From positions 9,032 to 73,031 of the forward strand of contig DASSIN010000066.1 in NCBI GenBank assembly GCA_035691845.1: DNA of 64,000 nt. The letters run 5' to 3'. Below the pieces are notes generated by a model, which searched no databases, was not told where the DNA came from, and saw only the letters and a program-made list of their open reading frames with translations. Made by a program: the position numbers and the translations under genes. Numbering within the stretch: the stretch's first letter is position 1; each line of letters opens with the position of its first letter. This DNA is from Candidatus Eiseniibacteriota bacterium (GTDB lineage Bacteria > Eisenbacteria > RBG-16-71-46). This document shows positions 905-13,558 of the stretch, in pieces.

Positions 905-3900
905 TTACCGCGCGACCACCAGCCTGCGCACGAGCGTACCCCGCGAGGTGACGAGCCGGGCGAAGTAGATGCCCGGCGTGGCCGTGGCGTTGGTCGTTCG
1001 CGCGCCGGCGCCGACCTGGTAGCGGCCGGGGTCGTACGAGCCATCCGCCAGCGTGGCGACCGTCCTGCCCCCCACGTCCACGATCGTCAGCCGCACCGGC
1101 GTGCTCCACGGCAGCGAGAACGCCAGCGCGATCGGACCCGATGACGGGTTGGGTCCGACGGTCTCGAGCGAGAACTCGATCGGGGCCTGGGACACGTCGG
1201 CGGCGGCCGTGACGTCCTCATTGATTCCATCGGTCGCCGTGGAGAACGCGGTCGAGCCGCCGTTCGCTACGGTGCTGGCGAGAGCGCCGTTGACGCCCGA
1301 AGTCTGGTCCCACGCGCGGAAGGTGAGCGCGTCCGAAAGCGTGCCGCTGAATCCCGTCGGGGGCTGGAGGTAGATGCGGGTGTTCGCGTCGGCGGCGAGC
1401 AGGCGGGCGCTGCTCACGCTCGCCGTCCCCATCGCCGTCCACGTCGTGCCATCCAGCGAGTAATACGCGATCACGTTGGGAGCGACCGCGACCACCGCGA
1501 TCCCGAGTGCCGCGCCGGCATCGGGATCGAGGACGTTGTCCAGCTGCCCCGAAGGGATGGCGGGATCGACCAAGGTCGACACCAGCGCGCCGACCGCCCC
1601 GACGGGCGCGCCGGAGTTCTCCTGCACCGCGGGAATCGTCGGAGTCTTGGAGGCGTCCAGCACCGGCGCGTCGTTCACGGGGATGCCGGTGACGTTCTTG
1701 GTGCCGCTCACCGCCAGGACGCCGTCGCTCACCTGCGTGCCGATCGCGAACGAGGCGTTGAAGTTGGGGGCGGGAACGAAGGTCACCGCGGCCAGCAGCA
1801 CGTTCACGTCGGCGATCGGGCCGCTGGCGTTCCACACGCCGTTGGCGAACGTCGACGTGACGCTGCCGGATGTGGCGGTGGTGAGCACGCCCGCCGCCGT
1901 GGAAAGGGTCAGCGTCACGGCCGTGTTGGCGTCATCGGGGTCGCTCACCACGATGTTCGCCAGGTCGAGCGGCGTGTCCTCGACGTACACCTCGGAGGCC
2001 GACAGGTTGGTGGCCTGGGGTGACTGATCGACGTGGACGATGAACTGCGAGATGGCGCCGATGGCGATCGAGAACGCGGTGCTGCCTCCGCTCGAGGAGG
2101 CGTCCGCCAGCCCGCCGTTCGATCCCGACGTCCGGTCCCACGCGCGGAAGCTGAGCGCGTTGGGGAGCGAGCCGTAGAAGTTCGGAGCCGGCTGCAAGAA
2201 GATGCGCGTGACGCCGTCGGCGGCCAGCAGTCGCGCGTTGGGGAGGCCGACCGAGCCCATCACCGTCCACGTGGCGCCGCCGTTGGTCGAATAGTACGCG
2301 ATCACGTGCGGGTCGACCGCCACCACGGCGATCCCGAGCAGGGCGCCCGCATCGGGATCGGTCACGTTGTCCACCTGGCCGGTGGGCACCGCGAAGTCCA
2401 CCAGGTTCGAGACCGGCGTGCCGGAACCGCCGATCGGCGGCGCCGCGGCGTTCTCCTGCACCGGCTGCATGGCCGGCAGCTTGGAGATGTCTAGCGCGGG
2501 CGCGTCGTTGACGGCGATTCCAGTCACGGCCTTGGTGCCGGTGAGCGCCGGAGCGATGCCGTCGCTGACGCTGGTGGAGATCGAAAACGCGCCGTTGCCG
2601 TTGGGGGCCGGAACAAAGCTGACCGAGGCCAGCAACGCGTTGACGTCCGCGATAGGGCCGTTCGACGTCCACACCCCGGTCAGCGCGTTGTAGGTCGAAG
2701 TGGTGCTGCCCGAGGTGGTCGTGGTCAGGCTGCCGGCGGCGGGGTCGGACAAGGTCAGGGTCGCGATGAGGACGGGGCTGTCGATGTCGGACACCACGAT
2801 GTCGATCAGGTCGAGCGGCGTGTCCTCGGTATAGGTCTCCGCCGCGTTCAGGTTGGTGGCCTGCGGCGGGTCGTTCACGGGCACGCCCGTCATGACCTTG
2901 CTGCCGGTCACGGGCGCGGAGATGCCATCCGTGACACTGGTGAGAATGGTGAACGTGGCGTTGAAGTTCGCCGCGGGGACGAACGTCACGCCGGCGAGCA
3001 GCGCGTTGACGTTGGCGATCGGCCCGCTCGCACTCCACACGCCGGCGCCGAAGGTGGCCGTGGTGCCGCCGACGCTGCCGGTGGTGAGGATGCCGGCGCC
3101 AGGATTGGACATGGTCAACGTCGCCGTCGTGCCGTTGTTGTCGACGTCGCTGACCACGATGTCGATCAGGTTGAGCGGCACGTCCTCCGTATAGGTCTCC
3201 CCCGCGCTCAGGTTGGTCGCCTGCGGTGGATCGTTCACGGGGAGGCCGGTGATGAACTTGGTGCCCGTCAACGGCGGCGCGATGCCGTCACTGACGCTGG
3301 TGGCGATCGAGAAGCCCCCGTTGAAGTTCGGCGCCGGGACGAACGTCACCCCGGCGAGCAGCGCGTTGACATCGGGAATCGCTCCGGATGCGGTCCAGGT
3401 GCCGGCTGCGGCGATGTACGTCGAGGTGACGCCACCCGAGGTGGCCGTGGTGAGGCTGCCGGCCGTGGGGTTCGACAGCGTCAGCGACACCTGGGTCGTG
3501 AAGTTGTCGATGTCGCTCACCACGATGTCGGCCAGGTTGAGCGGGACGTCCTCGGTGTAGGTCTCCGGGACGGACAGGTTGGTCGCCTGGGGCGGGTCGT
3601 CGACGGCGATGCCGGTCATGTTCTTGACGCCATTGACCGGCGGATTGAATCCGTCGCTGACGCTGGTGAACATGAGGAACGAGGCGTTGAAGTTCGGCGC
3701 CGGGATGAACGTCACGTCCGCGAGCAGCGAGTTGACCTCCGGAATCGGACCGCTCGCCGTCCACGTGCCGGCGCCGGGATTGTAGGTCGAGGTCGTGCTC
3801 CCGATGGTGCCCGTGGTGAGGCTGCCCGCGGCCGGGTTCGACAGAACCAGCGTGGCGGTCGTGACGGGATCGTCGTCGGACACCACGATGTCGGTGAGGT

Positions 3901-4084
3901 TGAGCGGGGTGTCCTCGGTGTAGACCTCGGGGGTGTTCAGGTTCGTCGCCTGGGGCGGAGCGTTCTGGCGCGCGGTGGTCGCCGCGGACGCTGGTTTGGC
4001 GGCCGAACTGGCGGCCAGGGCTCCGGCGAGCAGCACGGCAAGGGCGAAGCGGACGACACGCGTGGCGGCATGCGGCAGGCGCAT
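905..4084 (-). CDS. Giant secreted surface protein (1059 aa) with two types of tandem repeat and a T9SS-type/FlgD-Ig-like C-terminal sorting domain
   Basis: Signal peptide MRLPHAATRVVRFALAVLLAGALAASSAAKPASA. Five ~120-aa cadherin/Ig-like repeats (PPQATNL..TYTED.PLNL.DIVVSD..) plus two ~140-aa repeats. C-terminal PNPSSGP...TIVDVGGRTVATL...PGIYFARLV..RRLVVAR matches T9SS CTD pattern. Confidence 0.75.
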   Translation of the reverse strand: MRLPHAATRVVRFALAVLLAGALAASSAAKPASAATTARQNAPPQATNLNTPEVYTEDTPLNLTDIVVSDDDPVTTATLVLSNPAAGSLTTGTIGSTTSTYNPGAGTWTASGPIPEVNSLLADVTFIPAPNFNASFLMFTSVSDGFNPPVNGVKNMTGIAVDDPPQATNLSVPETYTEDVPLNLADIVVSDIDNFTTQVSLTLSNPTAGSLTTATSGGVTSTYIAAAGTWTASGAIPDVNALLAGVTFVPAPNFNGGFSIATSVSDGIAPPLTGTKFITGLPVNDPPQATNLSAGETYTEDVPLNLIDIVVSDVDNNGTTATLTMSNPGAGILTTGSVGGTTATFGAGVWSASGPIANVNALLAGVTFVPAANFNATFTILTSVTDGISAPVTGSKVMTGVPVNDPPQATNLNAAETYTEDTPLDLIDIVVSDIDSPVLIATLTLSDPAAGSLTTTTSGSTTSTYNALTGVWTSNGPIADVNALLASVSFVPAPNGNGAFSISTSVSDGIAPALTGTKAVTGIAVNDAPALDISKLPAMQPVQENAAAPPIGGSGTPVSNLVDFAVPTGQVDNVTDPDAGALLGIAVVAVDPHVIAYYSTNGGATWTVMGSVGLPNARLLAADGVTRIFLQPAPNFYGSLPNALSFRAWDRTSGSNGGLADASSSGGSTAFSIAIGAISQFIVHVDQSPQATNLSASEVYVEDTPLDLANIVVSDPDDANTAVTLTLSTAAGVLTTATSGSVTSTFANGVWNASGPIADVNVLLAAVTFVPAPNFNASFAIGTQVSDGVLAVSGTKNVTGIPVNDAPVLDASKTPTIPAVQENSGAPVGAVGALVSTLVDPAIPSGQLDNVLDPDAGAALGIAVVAVAPNVIAYYSLDGTTWTAMGTASVSSARLLAADANTRIYLQPPTGFSGTLSDALTFRAWDQTSGVNGALASTVANGGSTAFSTATDGINEDVTAAADVSQAPIEFSLETVGPNPSSGPIALAFSLPWSTPVRLTIVDVGGRTVATLADGSYDPGRYQVGAGARTTNATATPGIYFARLVTSRGTLVRRLVVAR

Positions 4085-4245
4085 GGAACCCCCGGGGGGC
4101 TAGAGGCTCGTCGGGATGCAAAGGGGGAATGGGCGTCGCCGGGAGCGTAGCAGCGCAACGCTCTCGAGACCAATGGATTCTGCCCGGAGTGTGAAGCGCG
4201 AGGACAAGGCACGGAGGTGGAACGGCCGCGGCAGGCGCCGCCCCG

Positions 4246-5568
4246 TCACCGCCGGGGCGCGTGGCCGGCGGCGCAGGCGGCGGCGCGTTCGAGCAGCAGC
4301 GCGCGCTCGCGCTGGTTGTGCGTCAGCTTCGCGGCGCGCTCGAATTCGGCGCGCGCCTCGGGCAGCCGGCCGAGGCGCGCGAGCATGTCGCCGCGCACGC
4401 TCGGCAGCAGGTGATAGCCCGCGAGCCGGCCGCCCTTGACCAGCCGGTCGACCTGCTCCAGCGCGACGGCCGGGCCGTACGCCATGCCGACGGCGACCGC
4501 GCGGTTCAGGTCCACGATCGGCGACGGCATCGCCTGCGCCAGCTCGCCGTAGAGCACGACGATGCGCTCCCAGTCGGTGTCGTCCGCCGTGCGCGCCCGG
4601 GCGTGGCACGCGGCGATCGCGGCCTGCAGCGTGTACGGTCCGCGGGTGGCCTCGAGCGACTCGGCGCGCGCCAGCGCCTCCAGGCCGCGGCGCACGAGCA
4701 GCGCGTTCCACAACGCGCGGTTCTGCTGGCGCAGCAGCACCGGCTCGCCGTGCGCGTTGGTGCGCGCGTGGGTGCGCGAGGCCTGCAGCTCCATCAACGC
4801 CACGAGCCCGTGCACCTCGGGCTCGTCGGGGACGAGGCGCGCCAGCACGCGGCCGAGCCGCATCGCCTCCTCGCACAGCGCCGGCCGCATCCAGTCGTCG
4901 CCAGCGGTGGCGGAATAGCCCTCGTTGAAGATCAGGTAGATCACCTCCAGAACCGCGGGGATGCGCGCGGCCAGCTCCGCGCCGCGCGGCACCACGAACT
5001 CCGCGCGCGCGTCGGCGAGCGTGCGCTTGGCGCGCACGATGCGCTGGGCGATCGTGGCCTCGGGCACCACGAACGCGCGCGCGATCTCGGGCGTGGTGAG
5101 CCCGCCCAGCAGCCGCAGCGTGAGCGCCACGCGCGCCTCGGTCGACAGCGACGGGTGGCAGCTCGTGAACATCAGCGCCAGCAGGTCGTCGCCGACCGGA
5201 TCGTCGAGCGCCATGTCCGAGGCCTGCTCGGGCGGCTCGCGCCGCGCTTCGATCTCGGCGCCCAACTGGTCGTGTCTGCGTTCGCGCATGTGGTTGCGCC
5301 TCACGTGATCGATCGCGCGATGCTTCGCCGCCTGCATCAGCCACGCGCCCGGACGCTCCGGCACGCCCTGGGACGGCCATTGCTGCAGCGCGGCCAGCAG
5401 CGCGTCCTGCGCCAGGTCCTCGGCGATGCCGACGTCGCGCACGATGCGCGCGAGGGCGGCGACCAGGCGGGCCGACTCGATCCGCCACACCGCCTCGATC
5501 GCGCGCCGCGTGGCGTCGCTCACGGCGCCAGGAATACCAGCTCGCGCAGCTCGCACTCCCCCTGCCAC
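4246..5568 (-). CDS. ECF-type sigma-70 factor with C-terminal DUF6596-like extension (SigJ-like). Start probably GTG at 5523 overlapping the upstream YciI stop (GTGA)
   Basis: EAVWRIESARLVAALARIVRDVGIAEDLAQDALLAAL region-2 motif; region-4 HTH (LTTPEIARAFVVPEATIAQRIVRAKRTLA); long C-terminal domain typical of YciI-associated sigma factors. Confidence 0.85.
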   Translation of the reverse strand: MAGGVRAARAGIPGAVSDATRRAIEAVWRIESARLVAALARIVRDVGIAEDLAQDALLAALQQWPSQGVPERPGAWLMQAAKHRAIDHVRRNHMRERRHDQLGAEIEARREPPEQASDMALDDPVGDDLLALMFTSCHPSLSTEARVALTLRLLGGLTTPEIARAFVVPEATIAQRIVRAKRTLADARAEFVVPRGAELAARIPAVLEVIYLIFNEGYSATAGDDWMRPALCEEAMRLGRVLARLVPDEPEVHGLVALMELQASRTHARTNAHGEPVLLRQQNRALWNALLVRRGLEALARAESLEATRGPYTLQAAIAACHARARTADDTDWERIVVLYGELAQAMPSPIVDLNRAVAVGMAYGPAVALEQVDRLVKGGRLAGYHLLPSVRGDMLARLGRLPEARAEFERAAKLTHNQRERALLLERAAACAAGHAPRR

Positions 5569-5879
5569 GCGGGCCAGTGGTCGGCGTGGAGCTGCATGAA
5601 CTCTTTCGTCGCGCGGATCGCCGCGTCGCGCGAGTCGGCCGCGATCACGGCGTAGCCGCCGATCACCTCCTTGCTCTCCGCGAACGGGCCGTCGACGACG
5701 GTGACCTTGCCGTTCTTCGATTGGATGCGGGCCGCGGCGGCCGACGGTGCGAGCCCTCCGGTCGACACCACGGTGCCGTCGTGCAGCGACTTCGTGACGT
5801 ACCGCTCGATCGCCTCCATGAAGCCGGCCGGCGGCGTGCCCTGCTGCTCGGCGGCGCGAATGACGGACAGATAGCGCAT
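5520..5879 (-). CDS. YciI-like (YCII-related/DGPF) protein, copy 2
   Basis: MRYLSVIRAAEQ...VVSTGGLAPS...GKVTVVDGPFAESKEVIGGYAVIAADSRDAAIRATKEF; ATG at 5879 preceded by GGGAGGTG RBS; six-frame ORF extends spuriously upstream. Confidence 0.8.
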   Translation of the reverse strand: MRYLSVIRAAEQQGTPPAGFMEAIERYVTKSLHDGTVVSTGGLAPSAAAARIQSKNGKVTVVDGPFAESKEVIGGYAVIAADSRDAAIRATKEFMQLHADHWPAWQGECELRELVFLAP

Positions 5880-5881
5880 GG

Positions 5882-6268
5882 TCACCTCCCGATCGCCTTC
5901 TGGATCTCCTCCGGGAAGTCGGAGGCCTCCTGGACCTGTCGCACCTCGATCACGTCGCCGTCCAGCATCGGCGCGCGGCGCGCCCACTCGATCGCCTCGT
6001 CCTGCGAGCGCGCCTGGATCATCCAGTAGCCGCCCACCAGCTCCTTGGACTCGATGTAGGGCCCGTCGATCACCGTGCTGTTGCCACCGCCGAACCGGAC
6101 GCGCGCCCCGGCCTTGGGCGGCGCGAGACCGTCGAGGCTCAGCAGCACGCCGGCATCGCCGAGCGACTTGTTGAACCGCGTCATCTTCTCCACCAGCTCG
6201 ACCGGCGGCACGAACTCGGCGGTGGCGTTCTCGTATGCCTTCGGGATCACCATCAGCATGAAGCGCAT
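5882..6268 (-). CDS. YciI-like (YCII-related/DGPF) protein, copy 1
   Basis: MRFMLMVIPKAYE...GGNSTVIDGPYIESKELVGGYWMIQARSQDEAIEWARR; ATG 6268 with GGAGAGG 8 nt upstream. Confidence 0.8.
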   Translation of the reverse strand: MRFMLMVIPKAYENATAEFVPPVELVEKMTRFNKSLGDAGVLLSLDGLAPPKAGARVRFGGGNSTVIDGPYIESKELVGGYWMIQARSQDEAIEWARRAPMLDGDVIEVRQVQEASDFPEEIQKAIGR

Positions 6269-6344
6269 GGTCGTCACCTCTCCGTGTCAGGGCCTCGGGT
6301 TGAGCGTTCGTGGTCGTTTCGAACAACGTGGTCATCGACCGGGA

Positions 6345-6725
6345 TCACGCCGTGCGGGGCGCGGGCGTGCGGCGGGCCAACGCCACGACGCTGGCGAGCA
6401 CGCCCACCAGCAGCGGGAACCCCGCCGCGGCCGCGCCCTGCGTGGATGCCGTCACCACCACTGCGCCGAGCATGATGACCACCAGCCCGGCGGCCGCAAG
6501 CGGGGTCAGTCGGGTGTGCACGTGGAGCGCGCCGGGGAGCACCAGGCCCAGCCCGCCCAGCACCTCGCACACCCCGATGAACTTGAGGAACGCGGCCGGC
6601 AGCGGCGACACGTGGGCGAGCTGCGTCATGGACATGGCGAGCTTGAAACCGCCCGCGAACAGGAACAGCGCGGCCAGGACGGCCTGCACGATCCACAGGG
6701 CGATCAGGGAACTACGGCGGGTCAT
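6345..6725 (-). CDS. DoxX-family membrane protein
   Basis: MTRRSSLIALWIVQAVLAALFLFAGGFKLAMS...FLKFIGVCEVLGGLGLVLPG; AAGGAG RBS before ATG 6725; 4 TM helices; the long six-frame ORF 6345..7829 upstream part is spurious. Confidence 0.8.
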   Translation of the reverse strand: MTRRSSLIALWIVQAVLAALFLFAGGFKLAMSMTQLAHVSPLPAAFLKFIGVCEVLGGLGLVLPGALHVHTRLTPLAAAGLVVIMLGAVVVTASTQGAAAAGFPLLVGVLASVVALARRTPAPRTA

Positions 6726-6979
6726 GATCGGCTCCTTTCCGTTGGCGGAGGCCGCCCGTGCGGCTTCCACCCACACGTCGAACGAGCCCACCCGGAATCG
6801 ACACGATCCGTAAGACGCGATGCAGGAATGAATTGTGACACCGAGATCGAGCGCCGCACGAACTCGGGAACGGCGCACGAAACCGGGCTCGGCAGCTTGG
6901 CGGGCGTGGGCCGCGCGCCTTGCCACGAGCGAACATCCGATTGCCGCCCGGGAGCCGGGAGCAGCCAACCGGGCAGCAG

Positions 6980-8146
6980 CTACGCTGCGAAGTGCTTGAT
7001 GATCACGCCCGCCACACCTGCAGCGGCGATCACGATCGGCTCCGGCAGCCTCCTGCCCCACGTCAACACGGCGAATGCGGCGACAGCGATGGCGATGGTC
7101 GGGACGTCGATCACGGCCCGGCGGCCGAGAACGATCACGGCGCCCGCGATGGCGCCCGTCGCCGCGGCCGTGACACCGCTCACGACTGCCTTCAGCACGC
7201 GATTGTCGGCGAAGCGGCGGTAGTGCGGAGCGGGGATGATCACCAGCAGATAACACGGGAGAAAGACGCCCAATGCCGCCGCGACAGCTCCCGCCGATCC
7301 GGCGACGAGATAGCCGATGAACGCCACCGTGATGACGACCGGACCGGGCGTGATCATCGCAACGGCCACCGCATCGAGGAACTGGCGCTCGTCGAGCCAG
7401 TGGAACCGACCCACCACGCCACCATGGAGGAACGGAACGATCGCAAGTCCGCTGCCGAACACGAACGCTCCCGCCTCGGCGAAGAAGCCTGCGAGACGGA
7501 CCAGCACGCGAGGATTCTGCGCTCCGTGAAGACCGGTCGTCAGCCAGCTGGTGGCACCGAGGGTCATGGCGGCCACGTGGCGGCGGGGCGGCGCCTTGAC
7601 CAGCCATGCGACCAGGCCGCTGGCGATGAAGACCCACACGATCTCGGTCGCCGTCCATGCGGTGATCACCGCATTGACGGTGAACAGCGCCCACAACATG
7701 CGATCCCGTCCCAGCGTCAGGCGCACGAGCTTCCAGGCGCTGCGCGCGATGATCGCGATCACCGCCGCGGCGACGCCGTAGAAGACCGCCTGCATCCATG
7801 GCAGGCCACCCGCGCGCACGTAGGCCCACGAGAGCGCGAGAACCATGGCGAATGACGGCAGGATGAAGGCCACGGCGACCGAGGTGGCCCCGACGATTCC
7901 GGCGCGAACCCAGCCGAGATAGATGGCCAGTTGCGCGGCCAGCGGCCCCGGCGCGAGCTGGGCGAGAGCGAGGCCTCGAACGTAGTCGTCATGCGTGATC
8001 CACCGGCGGCGCTCCACCAGGTCGCGCTGCATGTAGCCGACCAGCGCCACCGGGCCTCCGAAGCCGAACGTACCGAGACGCAGGAAATACACGAGCAGGT
8101 CTCGAAGGCCGCCGGCGGCGCGAGCCTCGCCCGGCGTGGATGACAT
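6980..8146 (-). CDS. chrA: Chromate transporter ChrA (CHR family, fused two-domain form)
   Basis: LVYFLRLGTFGFGGPVALVGYMQRDLVERRRWIT and second-half FLHGGVVGRFHWLDERQFLDAVAVAMITPGP motifs; ATG 8146 (TTG 8164 alternative overlaps upstream stop). Confidence 0.9.
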   Translation of the reverse strand: MSSTPGEARAAGGLRDLLVYFLRLGTFGFGGPVALVGYMQRDLVERRRWITHDDYVRGLALAQLAPGPLAAQLAIYLGWVRAGIVGATSVAVAFILPSFAMVLALSWAYVRAGGLPWMQAVFYGVAAAVIAIIARSAWKLVRLTLGRDRMLWALFTVNAVITAWTATEIVWVFIASGLVAWLVKAPPRRHVAAMTLGATSWLTTGLHGAQNPRVLVRLAGFFAEAGAFVFGSGLAIVPFLHGGVVGRFHWLDERQFLDAVAVAMITPGPVVITVAFIGYLVAGSAGAVAAALGVFLPCYLLVIIPAPHYRRFADNRVLKAVVSGVTAAATGAIAGAVIVLGRRAVIDVPTIAIAVAAFAVLTWGRRLPEPIVIAAAGVAGVIIKHFAA

Positions 8147-8160
8147 CGCGGCACGCCGCT

Positions 8161-9150
8161 TCAATGGGGCCGCATGATCCGCAGGACGGGCCGACCGCCG
8201 ACGCTCTGCAGCGGGAAGTAGACGAGATGCGTTCGCGGATCGACGGCGACCGTGTGAGCGTGGCGCATCGAGATGTCGCCAAGGTGGTGCAGCGTGGCGT
8301 CGCGTTCGGAGAATACGGACACGGTTCCGGATTCCGACGCGACGTACAGCCGCCGCAACACGGGATCGAAGGCGAGGACGTCGGGATTCCCGCCCACCCC
8401 GTGCCGTTGCACGACCTTCCAGCGCTTCAGGTCCACGACCAGCAATGTCGCGTCGTCCTCGTTTGCGACGAACAGCAGTTCTGCTGCCGGATCCAGCGAC
8501 ATGCCGTGAGGATGCGCTGCGCCCTCGAGCCGATGCCGCGCCGTCACGCGATCGCTGCCGGGGTCGATCTCCACCACCTCGTTGCGGGTTTGAACGGCGA
8601 CGAGCACGCGGCCCGAGCGAGGGTGGTAGAGGGTGTTGCCGGCTTCTCCGCCGAGTGACACGCGCCCGAGCACGCGATCCGACCGGCCATCGATCACGAG
8701 CTCGCCGCCTCCAGACTCGTCGGAGACGTACACCTTGCCTGTGCCCGGCGCGTACGCGATCCCGTCCGGAAACCCGATCCGTCCCAGGCGGGCGAGGACT
8801 CGCAGCGTGCGCGCATCGATGACCGCGACATGACGCGCTCCGGTCACCGAGGCGTAGACCTTTCCCAGCTCCGGAACGGCGCAGACGCCGGTGATGCGGG
8901 GCAGATCACTCACCCTGCCAGCGACCCGCCGCCTGGCGATGTCGAACACCACCAGCTCGTCCGCGTCCATGTGCGAGAGATAGAGACGGTTCGCGCTCGA
9001 ATCGAGGCTCTGGTAGTCGAACCGCACCGCGGGACCCGGCAACGCCACCTCGGCCACGCGTTCGAGCGCGGGCGTTCTCGGCGGGTGTGTGACCGCTGGC
9101 AGAGTCGCCGCGCTCGCGATCGCAAGCGCGCCGGCCAGCGACGGGATCAT
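8161..9150 (-). CDS. YVTN-family beta-propeller repeat protein (secreted), ChrJ-like
   Basis: Signal peptide MIPSLAGALAIASAATLPAV; repeated ...RLYVA/KVYVS...V.VID blades; start ATG overlaps upstream stop (ATGA). Confidence 0.75.
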   Translation of the reverse strand: MIPSLAGALAIASAATLPAVTHPPRTPALERVAEVALPGPAVRFDYQSLDSSANRLYLSHMDADELVVFDIARRRVAGRVSDLPRITGVCAVPELGKVYASVTGARHVAVIDARTLRVLARLGRIGFPDGIAYAPGTGKVYVSDESGGGELVIDGRSDRVLGRVSLGGEAGNTLYHPRSGRVLVAVQTRNEVVEIDPGSDRVTARHRLEGAAHPHGMSLDPAAELLFVANEDDATLLVVDLKRWKVVQRHGVGGNPDVLAFDPVLRRLYVASESGTVSVFSERDATLHHLGDISMRHAHTVAVDPRTHLVYFPLQSVGGRPVLRIMRPH

Positions 9151-10019
9151 GAGGAGCGCGTCTGGTCGAGCGCCGCGCGCACGCCGCGGGCGAGATCCTC
9201 GGCGCGTCCAATCCCCCAGTAGTGCAGGAACACGATGCGCGGGGTCTCACCGGTCATGTGCTGATGGATCGCCACGATCTCGATGTTGGCGTGGCGAAGC
9301 GCCCTCAGCACCGGCTGCAGCTCGGACTCGTGCATGGCGAAGTCGCCATCGACGAGGGCGCGATCCATCGACCCCGAGAACGCCGCCCAGGTGTTGACGC
9401 CCATGGCGTTGCCAACGGAATGGCCATGCATGCGCGCCGTGCGGCCGACGGTCACCTTGTAGACGCCTCCCGCAAGCTCCCCCCGATGGCCCAGAATGGC
9501 GGCCAGCTCGTCCGGCTCGAGTCGGCTTCGTGCGGGGTCGATGTCCGCCGTCTTTGGCGGCGTGCCGGGCCGCTCGAGGCGGGCGAGCACCTTCCCCACG
9601 GCCTCGGCGACGTGCTGGAGCGAGCCCGCGCCGCCGACGTGCATGAACATCACGCGCGGGTTCTCGCCCAGGAAATGGTTGTGGAGCGCCGTGACCTCGA
9701 GACCATTGTCGAGCGCCGTGCTCATGACCGGATTGACCTGGTCCTCGGTCAGGACCATGTCCCCCATCACCATCACACCGGACTCGATCGGCTGGAAGGC
9801 GGCCCATGACGTGAGGCCAGACGGCGGCGAGAGCTTGACCCCGCCGACGGTCACGGAGAGATCCGACCGGGGCGCCGACACCTTGAATACGCCTTCGGTG
9901 CGGTCCAGCCTTCCCCTGGTGCCGGTGAGCCGTTCGATGAGGGCCGTGTCGAGGGGCGATGCGGAGTGATGCGACGTCGTGGCCAGCGCGACAACGGTGA
10001 ACGCCGTCAGACAGTTCAT
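9147..10019 (-). CDS. DUF1259 / LppY-LpqO-family secreted protein
   Basis: Signal peptide MNCLTAFTVVALATT; internal duplication (…LHNHFLGENPRVMFMHVGG… / …IHQHMTGETPRIVFLHYWG…) typical of DUF1259; ATG 10019 overlaps upstream stop (ATGA), GGGGAGG RBS. Confidence 0.7.
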   Translation of the reverse strand: MNCLTAFTVVALATTSHHSASPLDTALIERLTGTRGRLDRTEGVFKVSAPRSDLSVTVGGVKLSPPSGLTSWAAFQPIESGVMVMGDMVLTEDQVNPVMSTALDNGLEVTALHNHFLGENPRVMFMHVGGAGSLQHVAEAVGKVLARLERPGTPPKTADIDPARSRLEPDELAAILGHRGELAGGVYKVTVGRTARMHGHSVGNAMGVNTWAAFSGSMDRALVDGDFAMHESELQPVLRALRHANIEIVAIHQHMTGETPRIVFLHYWGIGRAEDLARGVRAALDQTRSS

Positions 10020-10957
10020 GATGCCTCCCCTGCGGCCGGTTCGTCCTCGAATACGAGCGCGCGGTGCGACCGCGGCAGGAACGCGTAGACCCGGTTCGCG
10101 CCGGCGTCGAATGCCAGCGTGTGGGCGCCGGGCTCGGTGACGACGGTTTCCACGCGCGTCCAGCGCGCGACGTCGACGACGTCGATCACGCCGGGATCGC
10201 CGATCGCGACATACAGGTGATTCAGCGCGGGATTGTAGAACACGACGTCCGGTGGGCCGGACAGCGCGAGCGACCGAACGACATGACCCGCCTGGATGTC
10301 CACCGCGCACACCTGCCCGTCGTCGCATGCGCAGTAGAGCAGATGCCGGGCGGCGTCGAGGTCGAGTCCGTGCGGTCCGCGCTGCGGGATCGGGATCGCG
10401 CCGGCGATGCGATCGGGCGAGCGCGCATCGACGATCACGATCTCGGCAGGATCGGCGATGTTGACGAAGAACCGGTCCTGGTCCGGATCGAAGATCGCCC
10501 ACCGCGTCCGGCCCGGCATCGCGATCGTGGCGCGGACGGCGCGGGATGCCACGTCGACGATCGTGACGCTCGCCGAGCCGGGCGCGCCGGGATCGCCGAC
10601 GTTGGCGCACAGCAGCGTGCCGCGACCGGGATCGTGGGCGAGTCCGTTGGGCCGCAGCCCGACCCCGACCTTGGTCACCTCTCCGCCCTCGGCGGCGAAC
10701 ATCGCGATCGTGTTCTCGCCGCGGTTGGAGCTGAACACCAGGCCGCCGATCGAGTCGGTGAGAGCGCCGGCCACGCCCTTCAGACCATCAATGGATCGAA
10801 CGTGACGGGCCGCGTGCGTGTCGATCACGTCCACGGCGTCGTTGGCAGTGTGGGCGACGAACAGCAGCCCCCGCCCGGTGTCGACCGCGGCGTGATCGAA
10901 CGCGCCCGGCCCGAGATGGGCGGGAAGCGCGATCACGCTTGCGTGGTTCAACGGCAT
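10016..10957 (-). CDS. YVTN/NHL-type beta-propeller repeat protein
   Basis: repeated blades (LLFVAHTANDAVDVID, RFFVNIADPAEIVIVD, HLYVAIGDPGVIDVVD); RBS GGAGGGGGAG before ATG 10957. Confidence 0.7.
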   Translation of the reverse strand: MPLNHASVIALPAHLGPGAFDHAAVDTGRGLLFVAHTANDAVDVIDTHAARHVRSIDGLKGVAGALTDSIGGLVFSSNRGENTIAMFAAEGGEVTKVGVGLRPNGLAHDPGRGTLLCANVGDPGAPGSASVTIVDVASRAVRATIAMPGRTRWAIFDPDQDRFFVNIADPAEIVIVDARSPDRIAGAIPIPQRGPHGLDLDAARHLLYCACDDGQVCAVDIQAGHVVRSLALSGPPDVVFYNPALNHLYVAIGDPGVIDVVDVARWTRVETVVTEPGAHTLAFDAGANRVYAFLPRSHRALVFEDEPAAGEAS

Positions 10958-10976
10958 GACGCGCTCCCCCTCCGCC

Positions 10977-11438
10977 TCATCGCACGGCGCCTTCGGGACT
11001 GGCCTTGCCGACCGTCTCCTGGCAGTAGGCGTAGAGCGCGTCGTAGACGATCCATTCGGCCCGGTTCAGCTCGTGATCGTCCTTGAACCCGAGATGTCGG
11101 AAGCCCGTGGCGATGGCCTTGAGCCCCGCCGACTCGCGCTGGTTCCACAGCGTGTTGTCGGTGTCCGCGCCATTGACGATGCGGGCGAGCAGCACGAGCG
11201 CCGGATCGCCGGTCAATCCGTGTTTCTTGACGATCGCGTCGAACGAACACTCCTTGCCGTGATGCCCGAGCTCGACGCCCGTGACGTCGTACGGGATGGC
11301 GCCCTCGCGCTCGGCCGTCGCCATCACCTGATCCGACGGCACGAACAGGAACTCGGCCGCCGGATCGACGAACCTGCGGATGAGCCACGGGCAGGCGACG
11401 CGGTCGACCTTGACGTGCTCGCGGGTGATCCACTTCAT
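10977..11438 (-). CDS. Stand-alone ChrB C-terminal-domain protein (ChrB_C paralog)
   Basis: MKWITREHVKVDRVACPWLIRRFVDPAAEFLFV parallels RARVWVTRRGVLVDRIASAWLIRRFVDPAARFRFV in the adjacent chrB; ATG 11438 overlaps chrB stop (ATGA), AGGAGTG RBS. Confidence 0.7.
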   Translation of the reverse strand: MKWITREHVKVDRVACPWLIRRFVDPAAEFLFVPSDQVMATAEREGAIPYDVTGVELGHHGKECSFDAIVKKHGLTGDPALVLLARIVNGADTDNTLWNQRESAGLKAIATGFRHLGFKDDHELNRAEWIVYDALYAYCQETVGKASPEGAVR

Positions 11439-12370
11439 GGCAGCACTCCTTTCGGGACATGTGGCGTGACCCCTCGGAACGAGGCGTACAGGCAGTCGAA
11501 CAGCGGCCATCCTCTTTCCAGCCGGGCGTGGTCGTCGGCTTCGATGGCCGCGAGCCCGGCGATGAAGCTGGCGAGCCCCGGACCCTCGGCGCGGCCGTAC
11601 TTGCCGTCCTTGAGGTCCAGGTCGTGGACGGTCTCGGCCATCTGGCGCAACGCCGTGTCGCGCGGCTGCAGGCGCGCCGTCAGCGTCTCGAACGTGCAGC
11701 GATCCCCCTCGTGCGTGAACTCGCCGCCCGCCATGTCGAAACGCAGCTCGCCCGGCGCGATCGCATCGCCCGGGGCCACGAACCGGAACCGCGCGGCCGG
11801 ATCGACGAACCGCCGGATGAGCCAGGCACTCGCGATCCTGTCCACCAGCACGCCGCGGCGCGTCACCCACACGCGCGCGCGGTAGTCGTCGGGCGCGGGC
11901 TTCGCCGGCGACGCCGCGGGCGCTGCGGCGGCGGGCGGCGCTTCCTGCGCCAGGCGCCGGCGCAATCGGGCGAGACGCGCGCCGGCCGTGCGGCGATCCG
12001 ATGGCCGCGCGCGCACCGTGCCCCGGGCGATGCCCTCGAGCCGCTCGATCTGGGCGAGCGCCTGCCGGCGGCGGCGCTCGAGTTCCCGCGCGTGGCCGCG
12101 ATCGAGCGCGATGTGGTCGCGCGCGTCGAGCCACAGCACGACGCACGGCATCGCCTTGCCGCGCCGGCGCTCGAGCTGCCGCCCGGCCGCCGCCATCGCC
12201 GCGCGCGCGCCGGGGCCGTCGGGCAGCGCGTAGACGCCATCACGCACCGCCACCGCGCCGATCCGTCGCAACGACCTGCGGACGTGGACGCGGTCGGCGG
12301 CCAGGCGTGGCATGCGCTCCGCGATCAGCGCGATCCATCCGGCCGATGCCGCCTCGGATTCAGCTGCCAT
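11435..12370 (-). CDS. chrB: Chromate resistance regulator ChrB (N-terminal ChrB domain + ChrB_C domain)
   Basis: 311 aa; N-terminal DGVYALPDGPGARAAM.., C-terminal WLIRRFVDPAARFRFV motif; first gene of co-directional coupled operon. Confidence 0.75.
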   Translation of the reverse strand: MAAESEAASAGWIALIAERMPRLAADRVHVRRSLRRIGAVAVRDGVYALPDGPGARAAMAAAGRQLERRRGKAMPCVVLWLDARDHIALDRGHARELERRRRQALAQIERLEGIARGTVRARPSDRRTAGARLARLRRRLAQEAPPAAAAPAASPAKPAPDDYRARVWVTRRGVLVDRIASAWLIRRFVDPAARFRFVAPGDAIAPGELRFDMAGGEFTHEGDRCTFETLTARLQPRDTALRQMAETVHDLDLKDGKYGRAEGPGLASFIAGLAAIEADDHARLERGWPLFDCLYASFRGVTPHVPKGVLP

Positions 12371-12411
12371 GGCCTACGGATACCACCCCGCGTGCGGGTC
12401 CGCAACACAAA

Positions 12412-12427
12412 TGATTCGCACGAATCA
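12412..12427. promoter_or_regulatory. AT-rich palindrome TGATTCG-CA-CGAATCA in the chrB / eamA divergent intergenic region: candidate operator
   Basis: perfect 7-bp inverted repeat embedded in a locally low-GC island (aacacaaatgattcgcacgaatcacttatgtgatgg) within the 114-bp divergent promoter region 12371..12484. Confidence 0.4.
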
Positions 12428-12484
12428 CTTATGTGATGGACGTGGAGGGTTGGCGGCCCGCGCGGTTCGTGCTGCAATGGGCCG

Positions 12485-13558
12485 ATGGCTGTCGCCCGGA
12501 GACCGACGCGCACCCGGCTCGAGGTGCTGCTCGGGGCGCTGGCGTTCGCGGCCAGCGTCCCCGCCGGCAAGTTGCTGCTGCGCGGGCTCGCGCCGCTGGC
12601 GTTGTCCGGCGGGCTCTACCTGGCCGCCGGCGCGTTGTGCGCTGCGCTGCTGGCGCTGCAGTCCAGGCGCCAGCGACGCGAGCGCAACCGGCTGCAGGGC
12701 CGCGAGTGGTGGTGGCTGCTGTTGGCGATCGCATTCGGCGGCGTGCTCGGGCCGCTCGCGCTGTTCCACGGCCTGCGTCTGACCAGCGGCCACGTGGCCG
12801 GCCTGCTGCTGAACTTCGAGGCGGTGTTCACGGTCGCGCTCGGCGCCGTGCTGTCGCGCGAGCGCGTCGGCGCTCGAGGCGCGCAGGGCATCGGGCTCGT
12901 TATCGGCAGCGCCGTGCTGCTCGCCGCCACGGGCGAGCCCCACGCGTCCGCGGCCACGCGTCCGCTCGGACCGCTGCTGATCGTGGCGGCGTGCGCATGC
13001 TGGGGGCTCGACAACAACTTCACCCAGCACATCAGCCTGCGCGATGCGCGCCAGATCGTCGCGCTCAAGGGACTCATCGGCGGGGCCGCCAGCGTGTCGA
13101 TGGCGGCCGCGTTCGGCCAGCTCGGCGGTTGGTCGGCCGGCACCATCGCGGCCGTGGTGTGCGTGGGAGCCGTGTCCTACGGGGTCTCGATCGTGCTGTT
13201 CATCCGCGGCCTGCGGGCGCTGGGTGTCATCCACACCGGCGCGCTGTTCGCGCTCGCCCCCGGGTTCGCGGCCGTGTTGTCGTGGCTGGTGCTGCGCGAG
13301 CCCATCCATGCCGGCGCGCTGCTCGCCCTCGCCGGCATGACCGGCGGCGCCCTGTTGCTGGCGACCGATGTCCACGCGCACGAGCACGTCCACGAAGCGC
13401 TGGAGCACGCCCACCCGCACGAGCACGACGCGCACCACCAGCATGCGCACACGCCCGAGCAGCTGGACCAGGCGCCGCATGCCCACTGGCACCGCCACGA
13501 GCCGCTGGTCCACCGCCATGAGCATTCCCACGACCTCCACCACCGCCACCGGCACTGA
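12485..13558 (+). CDS. EamA/DMT-family transporter with ~60-aa His-rich C-terminal tail
   Basis: 10 predicted TM helices, two EamA halves; tail HAHEHVHEALEHAHPHEHDAHHQHAH...HAHWHRHEPLVHRHEHSHDLHHRHRH. Confidence 0.8.
   Translation: MAVARRPTRTRLEVLLGALAFAASVPAGKLLLRGLAPLALSGGLYLAAGALCAALLALQSRRQRRERNRLQGREWWWLLLAIAFGGVLGPLALFHGLRLTSGHVAGLLLNFEAVFTVALGAVLSRERVGARGAQGIGLVIGSAVLLAATGEPHASAATRPLGPLLIVAACACWGLDNNFTQHISLRDARQIVALKGLIGGAASVSMAAAFGQLGGWSAGTIAAVVCVGAVSYGVSIVLFIRGLRALGVIHTGALFALAPGFAAVLSWLVLREPIHAGALLALAGMTGGALLLATDVHAHEHVHEALEHAHPHEHDAHHQHAHTPEQLDQAPHAHWHRHEPLVHRHEHSHDLHHRHRH

Follow-up and report, generated by a model that had tools for sequence, protein, structure and literature searches.

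A six-gene operon of the chromate-resistance type from an uncultured soil bacterium, with a signal-less YVTN propeller gene located behind chrF

The six genes on the minus strand between positions 12370 and 6980 of the window (the whole 64-kb stretch of DNA analysed, from an uncultured soil bacterium) form a chromate-resistance-type operon in the order chrB-chrF-P1-chrY(L)-chrZ(K)-chrA. Judging from sequence homology, this locus probably confers inducible resistance to chromate (CrO4 2-) and represents an extended chr operon. Most of its parts correspond to accessory genes that have already received names in Cupriavidus and Arthrobacter, the exception being P1, which seems to be the new element of the locus. 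P1 represents a small, apparently undescribed cytoplasmic family of propellers, encoded almost always directly behind a ChrF gene. The genes, junctions and flanking features are as follows.

12485..13558, plus strand: CnrT-like transporter (DMT/EamA), C-terminal tail rich in His (EamA, 101 bits)
12398..12441, no strand: imperfect, AT-rich inverted repeat, its two arms of 21 nt separated by 2 nt, with 76% complementarity (repeat search)
11435..12370, minus strand: chrB, 311 aa, ChrB-type regulator of full length (Pfam: 29.5 bits for ChrB_N, 145 bits for ChrB_C)
11435-11438, minus strand: junction of chrB stop and chrF start, ATGA overlap
10977..11438, minus strand: chrF ortholog, ChrB_C-only, cytoplasmic, 153 aa (ChrB_C 156.9 bits, profile positions 1-132 of 132)
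10958-10976, minus strand: chrF/P1 junction, 19-nt gap containing GGAGGGGGAG
10016..10957, minus strand: P1, 7-blade YVTN/YncE-type propeller without signal peptide, 313 aa (partial matches to NCBIfam YncE and PQQ_ABC_repeats)
10016-10019, minus strand: junction of P1 and the DUF1259 gene, ATGA overlap
9147..10019, minus strand: chrY/chrL ortholog, secreted DUF1259 protein (LppY/LpqO family), 290 aa (PF07485 259.5 bits, two stretches)
9147-9150, minus strand: junction of the DUF1259 gene and P2, ATGA overlap
8161..9150, minus strand: P2, chrZ/chrK ortholog, secreted 7-blade YVTN propeller, 329 aa (homology and TIGR02276)
8161-8164, minus strand: P2/chrA junction, TTGA overlap
6980..8164, minus strand: chrA, 394 aa from TTG, predicted chromate efflux transporter of the long-chain CHR type (PF02417 twice, 270.7 bits)

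All six minus-strand open reading frames of the initial annotation were found at the coordinates it had given, and reading of the sequence confirmed its 4-nt start/stop overlaps, three of ATGA and one of TTGA, together with the 19-nt gap carrying a Shine-Dalgarno motif. The TTGA overlap at 8161-8164 holds only if chrA starts at TTG, an alternative ATG (8146) being located 18 nt downstream. The claim of a chr-type determinant was supported by profile searches, which gave family matches for each of the six genes, including ChrA, ChrB, ChrB_C, DUF1259 and the propellers, the last mostly below the full-length cut-offs; the accession cited for DUF1259, PF06702, was wrong and should be PF07485. This is the only chr locus within the window. 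Neither a sigma-70-like promoter nor an intrinsic terminator was detected in a consensus scan.

The chrA product contains two PF02417 halves in one chain of about 400 aa, scores 378.8 bits against TIGR00937 (cut-off 171.7) and is close to a studied ChrA, sharing 56% identity over 396 aa with ChrA1 of plasmid pMOL28; it is predicted to be a chromate efflux transporter. The chrB product carries the DNA-binding part, ChrB_N, followed by the sensor domain, ChrB_C, in a single protein, of which residues 1-298 align end to end with residues 1-318 of pMOL28 ChrB1 (29% identity). The split ChrB proposed in the initial annotation is therefore rejected, the second gene being, by its sequence, ChrF, the 'F' of canonical chrBACF. 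Its product is of the expected size (about 140-155 aa), consists of the ChrB_C domain alone, and is 55% identical to pMOL28 ChrF1 while sharing only 36% with the C-terminal domain of ChrB from its own operon (AF2 model, pLDDT 85.8).

The DUF1259 protein is built of two tandem PF07485 repeats, each of which carries an HxH...H motif; the invariant residues are H113/H115/H127 and H252/H254/H266. It is 46-49% identical to ChrY (Rmet_6195) and 32-34% identical to ChrL of Arthrobacter sp. FB24 (Arth_4247). Its AF2 model has a pLDDT of 89.7, and a search for homologs of solved structure gave none. The N-terminus includes a hydrophobic segment. The lipoprotein reading implied by the LppY/LpqO name was rejected, because no lipobox Cys follows the signal peptide: the N-terminus reads MNCLTAFTVVALATTSHHSA|SP by eye, the sole Cys is residue 3, ahead of the hydrophobic region, and the signal of close homologs ends AHA|A. 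As judged by eye, the protein is secreted and soluble through a plain signal peptide and not lipid-anchored. The P2 propeller is an ortholog of pMOL28 ChrZ (Rmet_6194, 44% identity) and FB24 ChrK (Arth_4252, 48.5%), with an N-terminal hydrophobic segment in all seven aligned members. It exceeds the cut-off of TIGR02276 (34.1 bits against 27.85), other full-length propeller profiles remaining below their curated cut-offs, and its invariant polar residues are H60, E145, N172, H215, E231, E273, H299 and H308.

Among the closest known systems, the cluster chrIBACEFONPYZ on pMOL28 of Cupriavidus metallidurans CH34 (Rmet_6204-6194) shares chrB, chrA, chrF, chrY and chrZ with the window, at the identities given above (from 29% for chrB to 56% for chrA), and in both chrY is followed directly by chrZ. 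In contrast to pMOL28, the window lacks chrI, chrC (SOD), chrE, chrO, chrN and chrP, has the extra signal-less P1 between chrF and chrY, carries chrA in the last instead of the second position, and has its six genes translationally coupled within 5.4 kb. In CH34, chrY (DUF1259) and chrZ (propeller) are chromate-induced members of the cluster, as are chrO, chrN and chrP (PMC2864759), and the ChrY protein was seen only in metal-challenged cells (PMC11647595). Synteny of the accessory chr genes with Burkholderia and Methylobacterium was pointed out in 2009-2010. The architecture is thus no novelty for a Gram-negative organism, since the link between accessory genes and chrA was already published for pMOL28.

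The determinant of Arthrobacter sp. FB24 (chrJ, chrB-Cterm, chrB-Nterm, chrK, SCHR, chrB-Cterm2, chrA6, chrL) has in common with the window a ChrK-type propeller with signal sequence, a ChrL-type DUF1259 protein, ChrA and stand-alone ChrB_C genes. In this strain the product of chrJ is a malate:quinone oxidoreductase, that of chrK a YVTN propeller and that of chrL an LppY/LpqO lipoprotein; all determinant genes are chromate-induced, and deletion of chrK or chrL reduces chromate resistance, high levels of which require the accessory genes (PMC2751784); Arthrobacter chrA alone gives about one-tenth of the resistance of the whole determinant. The window has neither the split ChrB with separate N and C genes nor chrJ nor the short-chain CHR gene, and the six genes gave no profile match to Mqo or short-chain CHR. 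The membrane anchor of the FB24 lipoprotein ChrL has no counterpart in the DUF1259 protein of the window; FB24 in turn is without a P1-type propeller, and the best plasmid matches to P1 are 27-36% identical. The suggested likeness to the chrJ/K/L lipoprotein genes of FB24 thus stands for DUF1259 and P2, homologous to chrL and chrK, but not for the lipoprotein nature, which belongs to chrL only. In Ochrobactrum tritici, the chrBACF determinant of TnOtChr includes chrC (SOD), absent from the window, and is without DUF1259 and propellers.

Upstream of chrB, in the intergenic region shared with the CnrT-like gene, the inverted repeat at 12398-12441 is comparable to that of TnOtChr and is a candidate ChrB operator, with a putative function. 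The CnrT-like gene is divergent from chrB and probably associated with the operon; cnrT itself is located on pMOL28, the plasmid that also carries chrIBACEFONPYZ, and in the window its counterpart adjoins the operon. The protein has the EamA/DMT fold and is 40% identical to pMOL28 CnrT over 339 aa, His-rich tail included, with 24 His among the last 70 residues; nickel is its putative substrate. The His-rich tail is kept in CnrT-like homologs adjoining DUF1259, ChrF or P1 at about 10 other loci.

Both propellers belong to the repeat family and fold class of E. coli YncE and related YVTN 7-blade propellers (PDB 3vgz, 1l0q), to which the likeness is distant (E 1e-11 to 1e-17 with the family profile), and P1 scores below the curated full-length cut-offs. 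YncE is periplasmic, unlike P1. The initial annotation had combined both propellers and DUF1259 into one periplasmic module, and this would be right if P1 were a periplasmic ChrK/ChrZ paralog of which the start codon or export signal had been missed, in line with its sharing the fold class of P2 and with its position directly before a secreted DUF1259 gene. Such a case is highly improbable. No in-frame start is found upstream of P1 before a stop, and the reading frame is not extendable. The N-terminus MxLKHxGxIDLP is common to all 19 aligned family members and aligns with the start of the P2 mature domain; 16 members begin there, and the three longer reading frames gain no hydrophobic stretch. 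Full-length representatives are 303-313 aa in length, their match beginning at residues 1-8, and alignment and hydropathy gave no signal peptide in any member, the maximum N-terminal hydropathy (median 0.78, against 2.6 for P2) being as low as that of cytoplasmic ChrF. Identity of P1 to P2, ChrK and ChrZ is only 27%, so that neither orthology to ChrZ/ChrK nor their signal sequence was found, and the two propellers differ in their invariant polar residues. The constant neighbour of P1 is ChrF, DUF1259 being present at only 17 of 85 loci. The single periplasmic module therefore fails for P1, which goes with ChrF instead.

ChrF and P1 are tightly coupled genetically: a ChrB_C gene is located directly upstream of P1 at 55 of 65 metagenome loci, whichever exporter (ChrA, ChrP-like MFS or CnrT-like) is nearby. 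Likewise, a ChrA or ChrB_C gene is present within 5 kb at 55 of the 80 genome loci with DUF1259 relatives, over many unrelated phyla, as anticipated from the proposed conservation of accessory genes beside chrA or chrB. Both frequencies are far above what chance would give in genomes with one or two chr genes each, and for this reason it is hardly credible that the propellers and DUF1259 are passengers unlinked to ChrA function, packed together by genome compaction or chance operon fusion. The DUF1259 homologs of highest identity (69-77%), of which at least one comes from another Eisenbacteria MAG, would fit that view, as they have no chr genes nearby and are found by themselves or beside just a propeller or CnrT-like gene, and so would the different gene order in the relatives L179, L058 and L093. 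Even with this shuffling, however, the gene set persists, L179 having the same six genes with P1 moved behind chrA, L058 again bringing together P1, DUF1259, P2 and ChrF, and L182 keeping the P1-DUF1259 junction; the genetic evidence from FB24 also speaks against mere passengers. DUF1259 is not confined to chrA loci: ChrA is present at 43 of the 80, and those closest homologs are without it. A further reading, in our judgement unlikely, is that ChrF, P1, DUF1259 and P2 constitute a general metal/oxyanion-stress module with swappable exporters, for which the ligand is a cation (Cr(III), Ni/Co) and ChrA one partner among several. The transporter beside P1 does vary (ChrA at 22, ChrP-like MFS at 21 and CnrT-like DMT at 5 of the 85 loci), which indicates that the accessory proteins may not be chromate-specific. 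His-tailed CnrT-like genes flank DUF1259, ChrF or P1 at about 10 loci, including the window and L181, where a CnrT-like gene is the sole partner of a 77%-identical DUF1259; plasmid-borne DUF1259 genes lie inside mixed metal-resistance islands, and the HxH...H motif is invariant in both DUF1259 repeats. Against a general module, the partner seen most constantly is a ChrB_C-domain gene, O. tritici ChrB is reported to be highly chromate-specific, ChrA is found at more than half of the DUF1259 loci, and both the chromate induction of CH34 chrY and chrZ and the FB24 deletions point to chromate.

For the chromate resistance operon that we favour, the following working is proposed. By analogy with O. 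tritici ChrB, ChrB would bind the AT-rich inverted repeat, and sensing of chromate by its ChrB_C domain would release or activate transcription of the six genes, which, from their overlapping junctions, would be carried on one translationally coupled mRNA. Given its identity to ChrA1, ChrA would move cytoplasmic chromate to the periplasm at the expense of the proton-motive force. The accessory proteins may form two pairs, one on each side of the membrane, in agreement with the hydrophobic N-termini present in the DUF1259 and P2 families and absent from the P1 and ChrF families. The periplasmic pair, DUF1259 and P2, might bind or process exported chromate or Cr(III) and block its re-uptake; location and homology of this pair are established, while its biochemistry is a guess from the conserved His/Glu residues. 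The HxH...H motifs of DUF1259 and its recurrent His-tailed, CnrT-like (nickel-type) partner suggest a cation no less than an oxyanion. On the cytoplasmic side, ChrF, a sensor domain without DNA-binding domain, and P1 may tune ChrB signalling or capture intracellular chromate/Cr. We tentatively suggest, at somewhat less than even confidence, that ChrF and P1 make up a conserved, undescribed cytoplasmic unit, combined with interchangeable exporters (ChrA, ChrP-like MFS, CnrT-like DMT) and often with a secreted DUF1259 protein, and almost confined to uncultured lineages from soil and sediment, Eisenbacteria and Rokubacteria among them.

Chromate resistance is usually accounted for by efflux through ChrA and regulation by ChrB. 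The accessory genes chrF, chrK/Z and chrL/Y are known to matter genetically. In the present locus all three are part of a single coupled operon, together with a second propeller, P1, with which the accessory proteins sort into a periplasmic pair (DUF1259 and P2) and a cytoplasmic pair (ChrF and P1). This split leads to testable hypotheses on protein partners, and to compact constructs for heterologous work. The recurring CnrT-like and ChrP-like exporters raise the question of whether these proteins handle chromate itself or a metal cation, for example Cr(III). If the reading of ChrF and P1 as a unit is true, the chr accessory genes would represent a wider two-compartment stress system, and not simple helpers of ChrA.

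Six open reading frames, all on the minus strand, were identified in the window sequence at 12370-6980, and each gave a family match in the Pfam/NCBIfam profile search.

Genes of the operon, with their family matches in the Pfam/NCBIfam profile search
11435-12370, minus strand: gene 1, chrB; ChrB_N and ChrB_C
10977-11438, minus strand: gene 2, chrF; ChrB_C alone
10016-10957, minus strand: gene 3, propeller P1; YncE/YVTN propeller, match partial
9147-10019, minus strand: gene 4, DUF1259 protein; tandem DUF1259 (PF07485, 259.5 bits)
8161-9150, minus strand: gene 5, secreted propeller P2; YncE/YVTN propeller, match partial
6980-8164, minus strand: gene 6, chrA; two Chromate_transp domains and TIGR00937 (378.8 bits against a cut-off of 171.7)

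The accession PF06702, which the initial annotation had assigned to DUF1259, is wrong and is replaced by PF07485. The description of a coupled six-gene operon was borne out by the five junctions read from the sequence: three ATGA overlaps (11435-11438, 10016-10019, 9147-9150), one 19-nt spacer at 10958-10976 with GGAGGGGGAG, and a TTGA overlap at 8161-8164, which is valid only with the TTG start of chrA (the alternative is ATG at 8146). Three of the genes are preceded by good Shine-Dalgarno motifs. A promoter and terminator scan, uninformative for this phylum, detected neither a sigma-70 promoter nor a relevant terminator. No second chr locus was found within the window. Proteins identical to those of the window were found on a 74-kb NCBI MAG contig labelled Candidatus Eisenbacteria. 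A gap of 255 nt separates the 3' end of chrA from DoxX_2 (6345-6724, minus strand), which is followed by two YCII genes (5520-6277, minus strand) and an ECF sigma factor gene with DUF6596 (4246-5568, minus strand). Related Eisenbacteria loci (L088-L091) also have a DoxX_2-YCII pair, there immediately before chrB. On the other side, 18501-21347 (minus strand) encodes a large secreted protein with Ig-like domains and a C-terminal FlgD_ig domain, and C-terminal domains of this kind are common in related loci; they may bear on the initial annotation's mention of a T9SS-bearing genome.

Accessory chr genes have been described before. In Arthrobacter sp. FB24, the product of chrK is a YVTN propeller that has a signal sequence, that of chrL is an LppY/LpqO lipoprotein and that of chrJ is a malate:quinone oxidoreductase; all three genes are induced by chromate and required for high resistance (Henne et al. 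2009, PMC2751784). Near its chrA, C. metallidurans has orthologs of both chrK and chrL, and a chrK ortholog is present also in Burkholderia (PMC2751784). The chromate-induced genes of the C. metallidurans CH34 plasmid pMOL28 were named chrO, chrN, chrP, chrY and chrZ (Janssen et al. 2010, PMC2864759), and chrY has been equated with chrL (PMC7060636). The presence of these genes in Gram-negatives is thus established and not new.

Gene 1 aligned end-to-end with pMOL28 ChrB1, indicating that ChrB is intact and not split as had been proposed. Gene 2 showed 55% identity to pMOL28 ChrF1 and only 36% to the C-terminal domain of the neighbouring ChrB, which makes it an ortholog of ChrF. For gene 6, identity to pMOL28 ChrA1 is 56%. 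Gene 4 shares 46-49% identity with Rmet_6195 (ChrY) and 32-34% with FB24 Arth_4247 (ChrL); for gene 5 the figures are 44% against Rmet_6194 (ChrZ) and 48.5% against FB24 ChrK. Together with the published chr genes, this orthology identifies five of the six operon genes as orthologs of named chr genes. The DUF1259 protein carries a signal peptide without a lipobox, and its reading as a lipoprotein was rejected.

The remaining gene, P1, shares only 27% identity with P2, ChrK and ChrZ. Its reading frame cannot be extended upstream, and its N-terminus lines up with the point at which the mature domain of P2 begins. The 19 aligned P1 homologs share a common N-terminus without a hydrophobic leader; this N-terminus is the start in 16 of them, and the three longer reading frames add no hydrophobic stretch. 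The maximum N-terminal hydropathy of the P1 family (median 0.78) is to be compared with 2.6 for P2, 2.5 for DUF1259 and 1.5 for the cytoplasmic ChrF. On these grounds P1 is predicted to be cytoplasmic and a periplasmic location was rejected, so that the single periplasmic module of two propellers plus DUF1259, as initially proposed, does not hold for P1. When 1.84 billion cluster representatives were scanned exhaustively with HMMER, only 113 reached E <= 1e-30, the full-length ones being 303-313 aa with the match beginning at residues 1-8. In the PLSDB plasmids no P1-type protein was found, the matches being only of the ChrK/Z type (27-36% identity).

The P1 family is closely associated with ChrF. 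Of the best 80 metagenome loci ranked by similarity to P1, 65 extend far enough upstream to be scored; in 55 of those, a gene with the ChrB_C domain ends directly upstream of P1 on the same strand, 46 of these genes being ChrF-sized and nine full ChrB. In all five contexts from long contigs, a ChrB_C-only gene is followed by P1, ChrA is absent within 6 kb, and the nearby transporter is MFS, EamA or absent. In two of these five, L093 and L095, the spacer is 19 nt as in the window. The P1-DUF1259 overlap was found again in L182 (84-85% identity), and P1, DUF1259, P2 and ChrF are together again in the Rokubacteria contig L058. For the 85 P1 loci listed, ChrF was present in 60, ChrB in 25, ChrA in 22, a ChrP-like MFS (about 250 bits to pMOL28 ChrP) in 21, DUF1259 in 17, SOD in 9 and a CnrT-like gene in 5. 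The ChrP-like MFS follows or lies near ChrF-P1, often without ChrA, in L088-L091, L097-L099, L109, L110, L125, L128, L133-L135, L140, L141, L146, L169 and L174. Such an arrangement points to chr-type systems with an MFS protein as the central exporter. The full six-gene set was detected in L179 with P1 moved behind chrA. This locus (1160-7255, JGI Ga0633815_0000567) reads chrB-chrF-[178-aa secreted protein]-DUF1259-P2-chrA-P1, the extra secreted protein, without a family match, occupying the place of P1; the gene caller gives P1 there as 116-aa and 177-aa pieces, and tblastn aligns it as one stretch.

DUF1259 is also kept beside chr genes. Within the best 80 genome loci ranked by similarity to the query (many phyla, 49-73% identity), ChrA or a ChrB_C gene is located within 5 kb of DUF1259 in 55 (ChrA in 43, ChrB_C in 45), and a propeller in 17. 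Where the sequence extends 5 kb or more in both directions, ChrA or ChrB_C is present in 24 of 37 loci. Among the matches listed, no chr genes were found near the closest homologs, which are 69-77% identical and include at least one protein of another Eisenbacteria MAG. Of the relatives 69-72% identical to the window protein, DUF1259 stands alone in L004-L006 and has just a P2-type propeller (64% identity to P2) behind it in L007 (7001-8859). DUF1259 is therefore not exclusive to chr loci. In L181 a CnrT-like gene is its sole partner. In L022, which comes from the genome survey, the gene after DUF1259 (58% identity) encodes a third type of propeller, neither P1 nor P2.

A gene at 12485-13558 (plus strand), divergent from chrB, encodes an EamA/DMT transporter with 40% identity over 339 aa to the pMOL28 nickel exporter CnrT. 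The match takes in the tail, which is conserved and rich in His (24 of the last 70 residues). In about 10 other, unrelated loci (L181, L095, L105, L066, L124, L087, L093, L100, L011 and L021), homologs that share this tail adjoin DUF1259, ChrF or P1. The only AT-rich patch within the 114-nt intergenic region is a 21-nt imperfect inverted repeat at 12398-12441, GTCCGCAACACAAATGATTCG / CGAATCACTTATGTGATGGAC, which recalls the ChrB operator of O. tritici and is a candidate ChrB operator.

AF2 models DUF1259 (pLDDT 89.7) as a tandem alpha/beta sandwich, for which no convincing solved structural homolog was found; a PDB sequence search detected no solved relative of DUF1259 (best E 0.32) or of ChrF (no match). 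An HxH...H motif and a GD...E motif are kept in each half. P2 has invariant His, Glu and Asn residues, and the different invariant set of P1 includes a CxC-D motif (C209/C211/D212). Judging from other propellers, a ligand site at the centre of the protein might be made up of these residues.

Taken together, the locus is probably an extended chr-type chromate-resistance operon, the biochemical details being much less sure. ChrB would control chromate-induced expression of one coupled mRNA and ChrA would export chromate; the periplasmic pair of DUF1259 and P2 may act on exported chromate or Cr(III), and the cytoplasmic pair of ChrF and P1 may modulate sensing or capture intracellular chromate or Cr. 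The interchangeable exporters beside the accessory genes and the His-rich features of accessory and neighbour proteins would also fit accessory proteins serving a cation or broader stress response, which we consider the main alternative and rather unlikely.

A literature search on DUF1259, LpqO and beta-propellers with chromate retrieved no papers other than those on FB24, CH34 and STM6070, and a ChrF-linked cytoplasmic propeller was not found in the literature searched. Judging by this literature, neither the pairing of ChrF with P1 nor the division of the accessory proteins between two compartments seems to have been described. Seen as a whole, the operon consists of known chr genes, compactly rearranged and in a new phylum.
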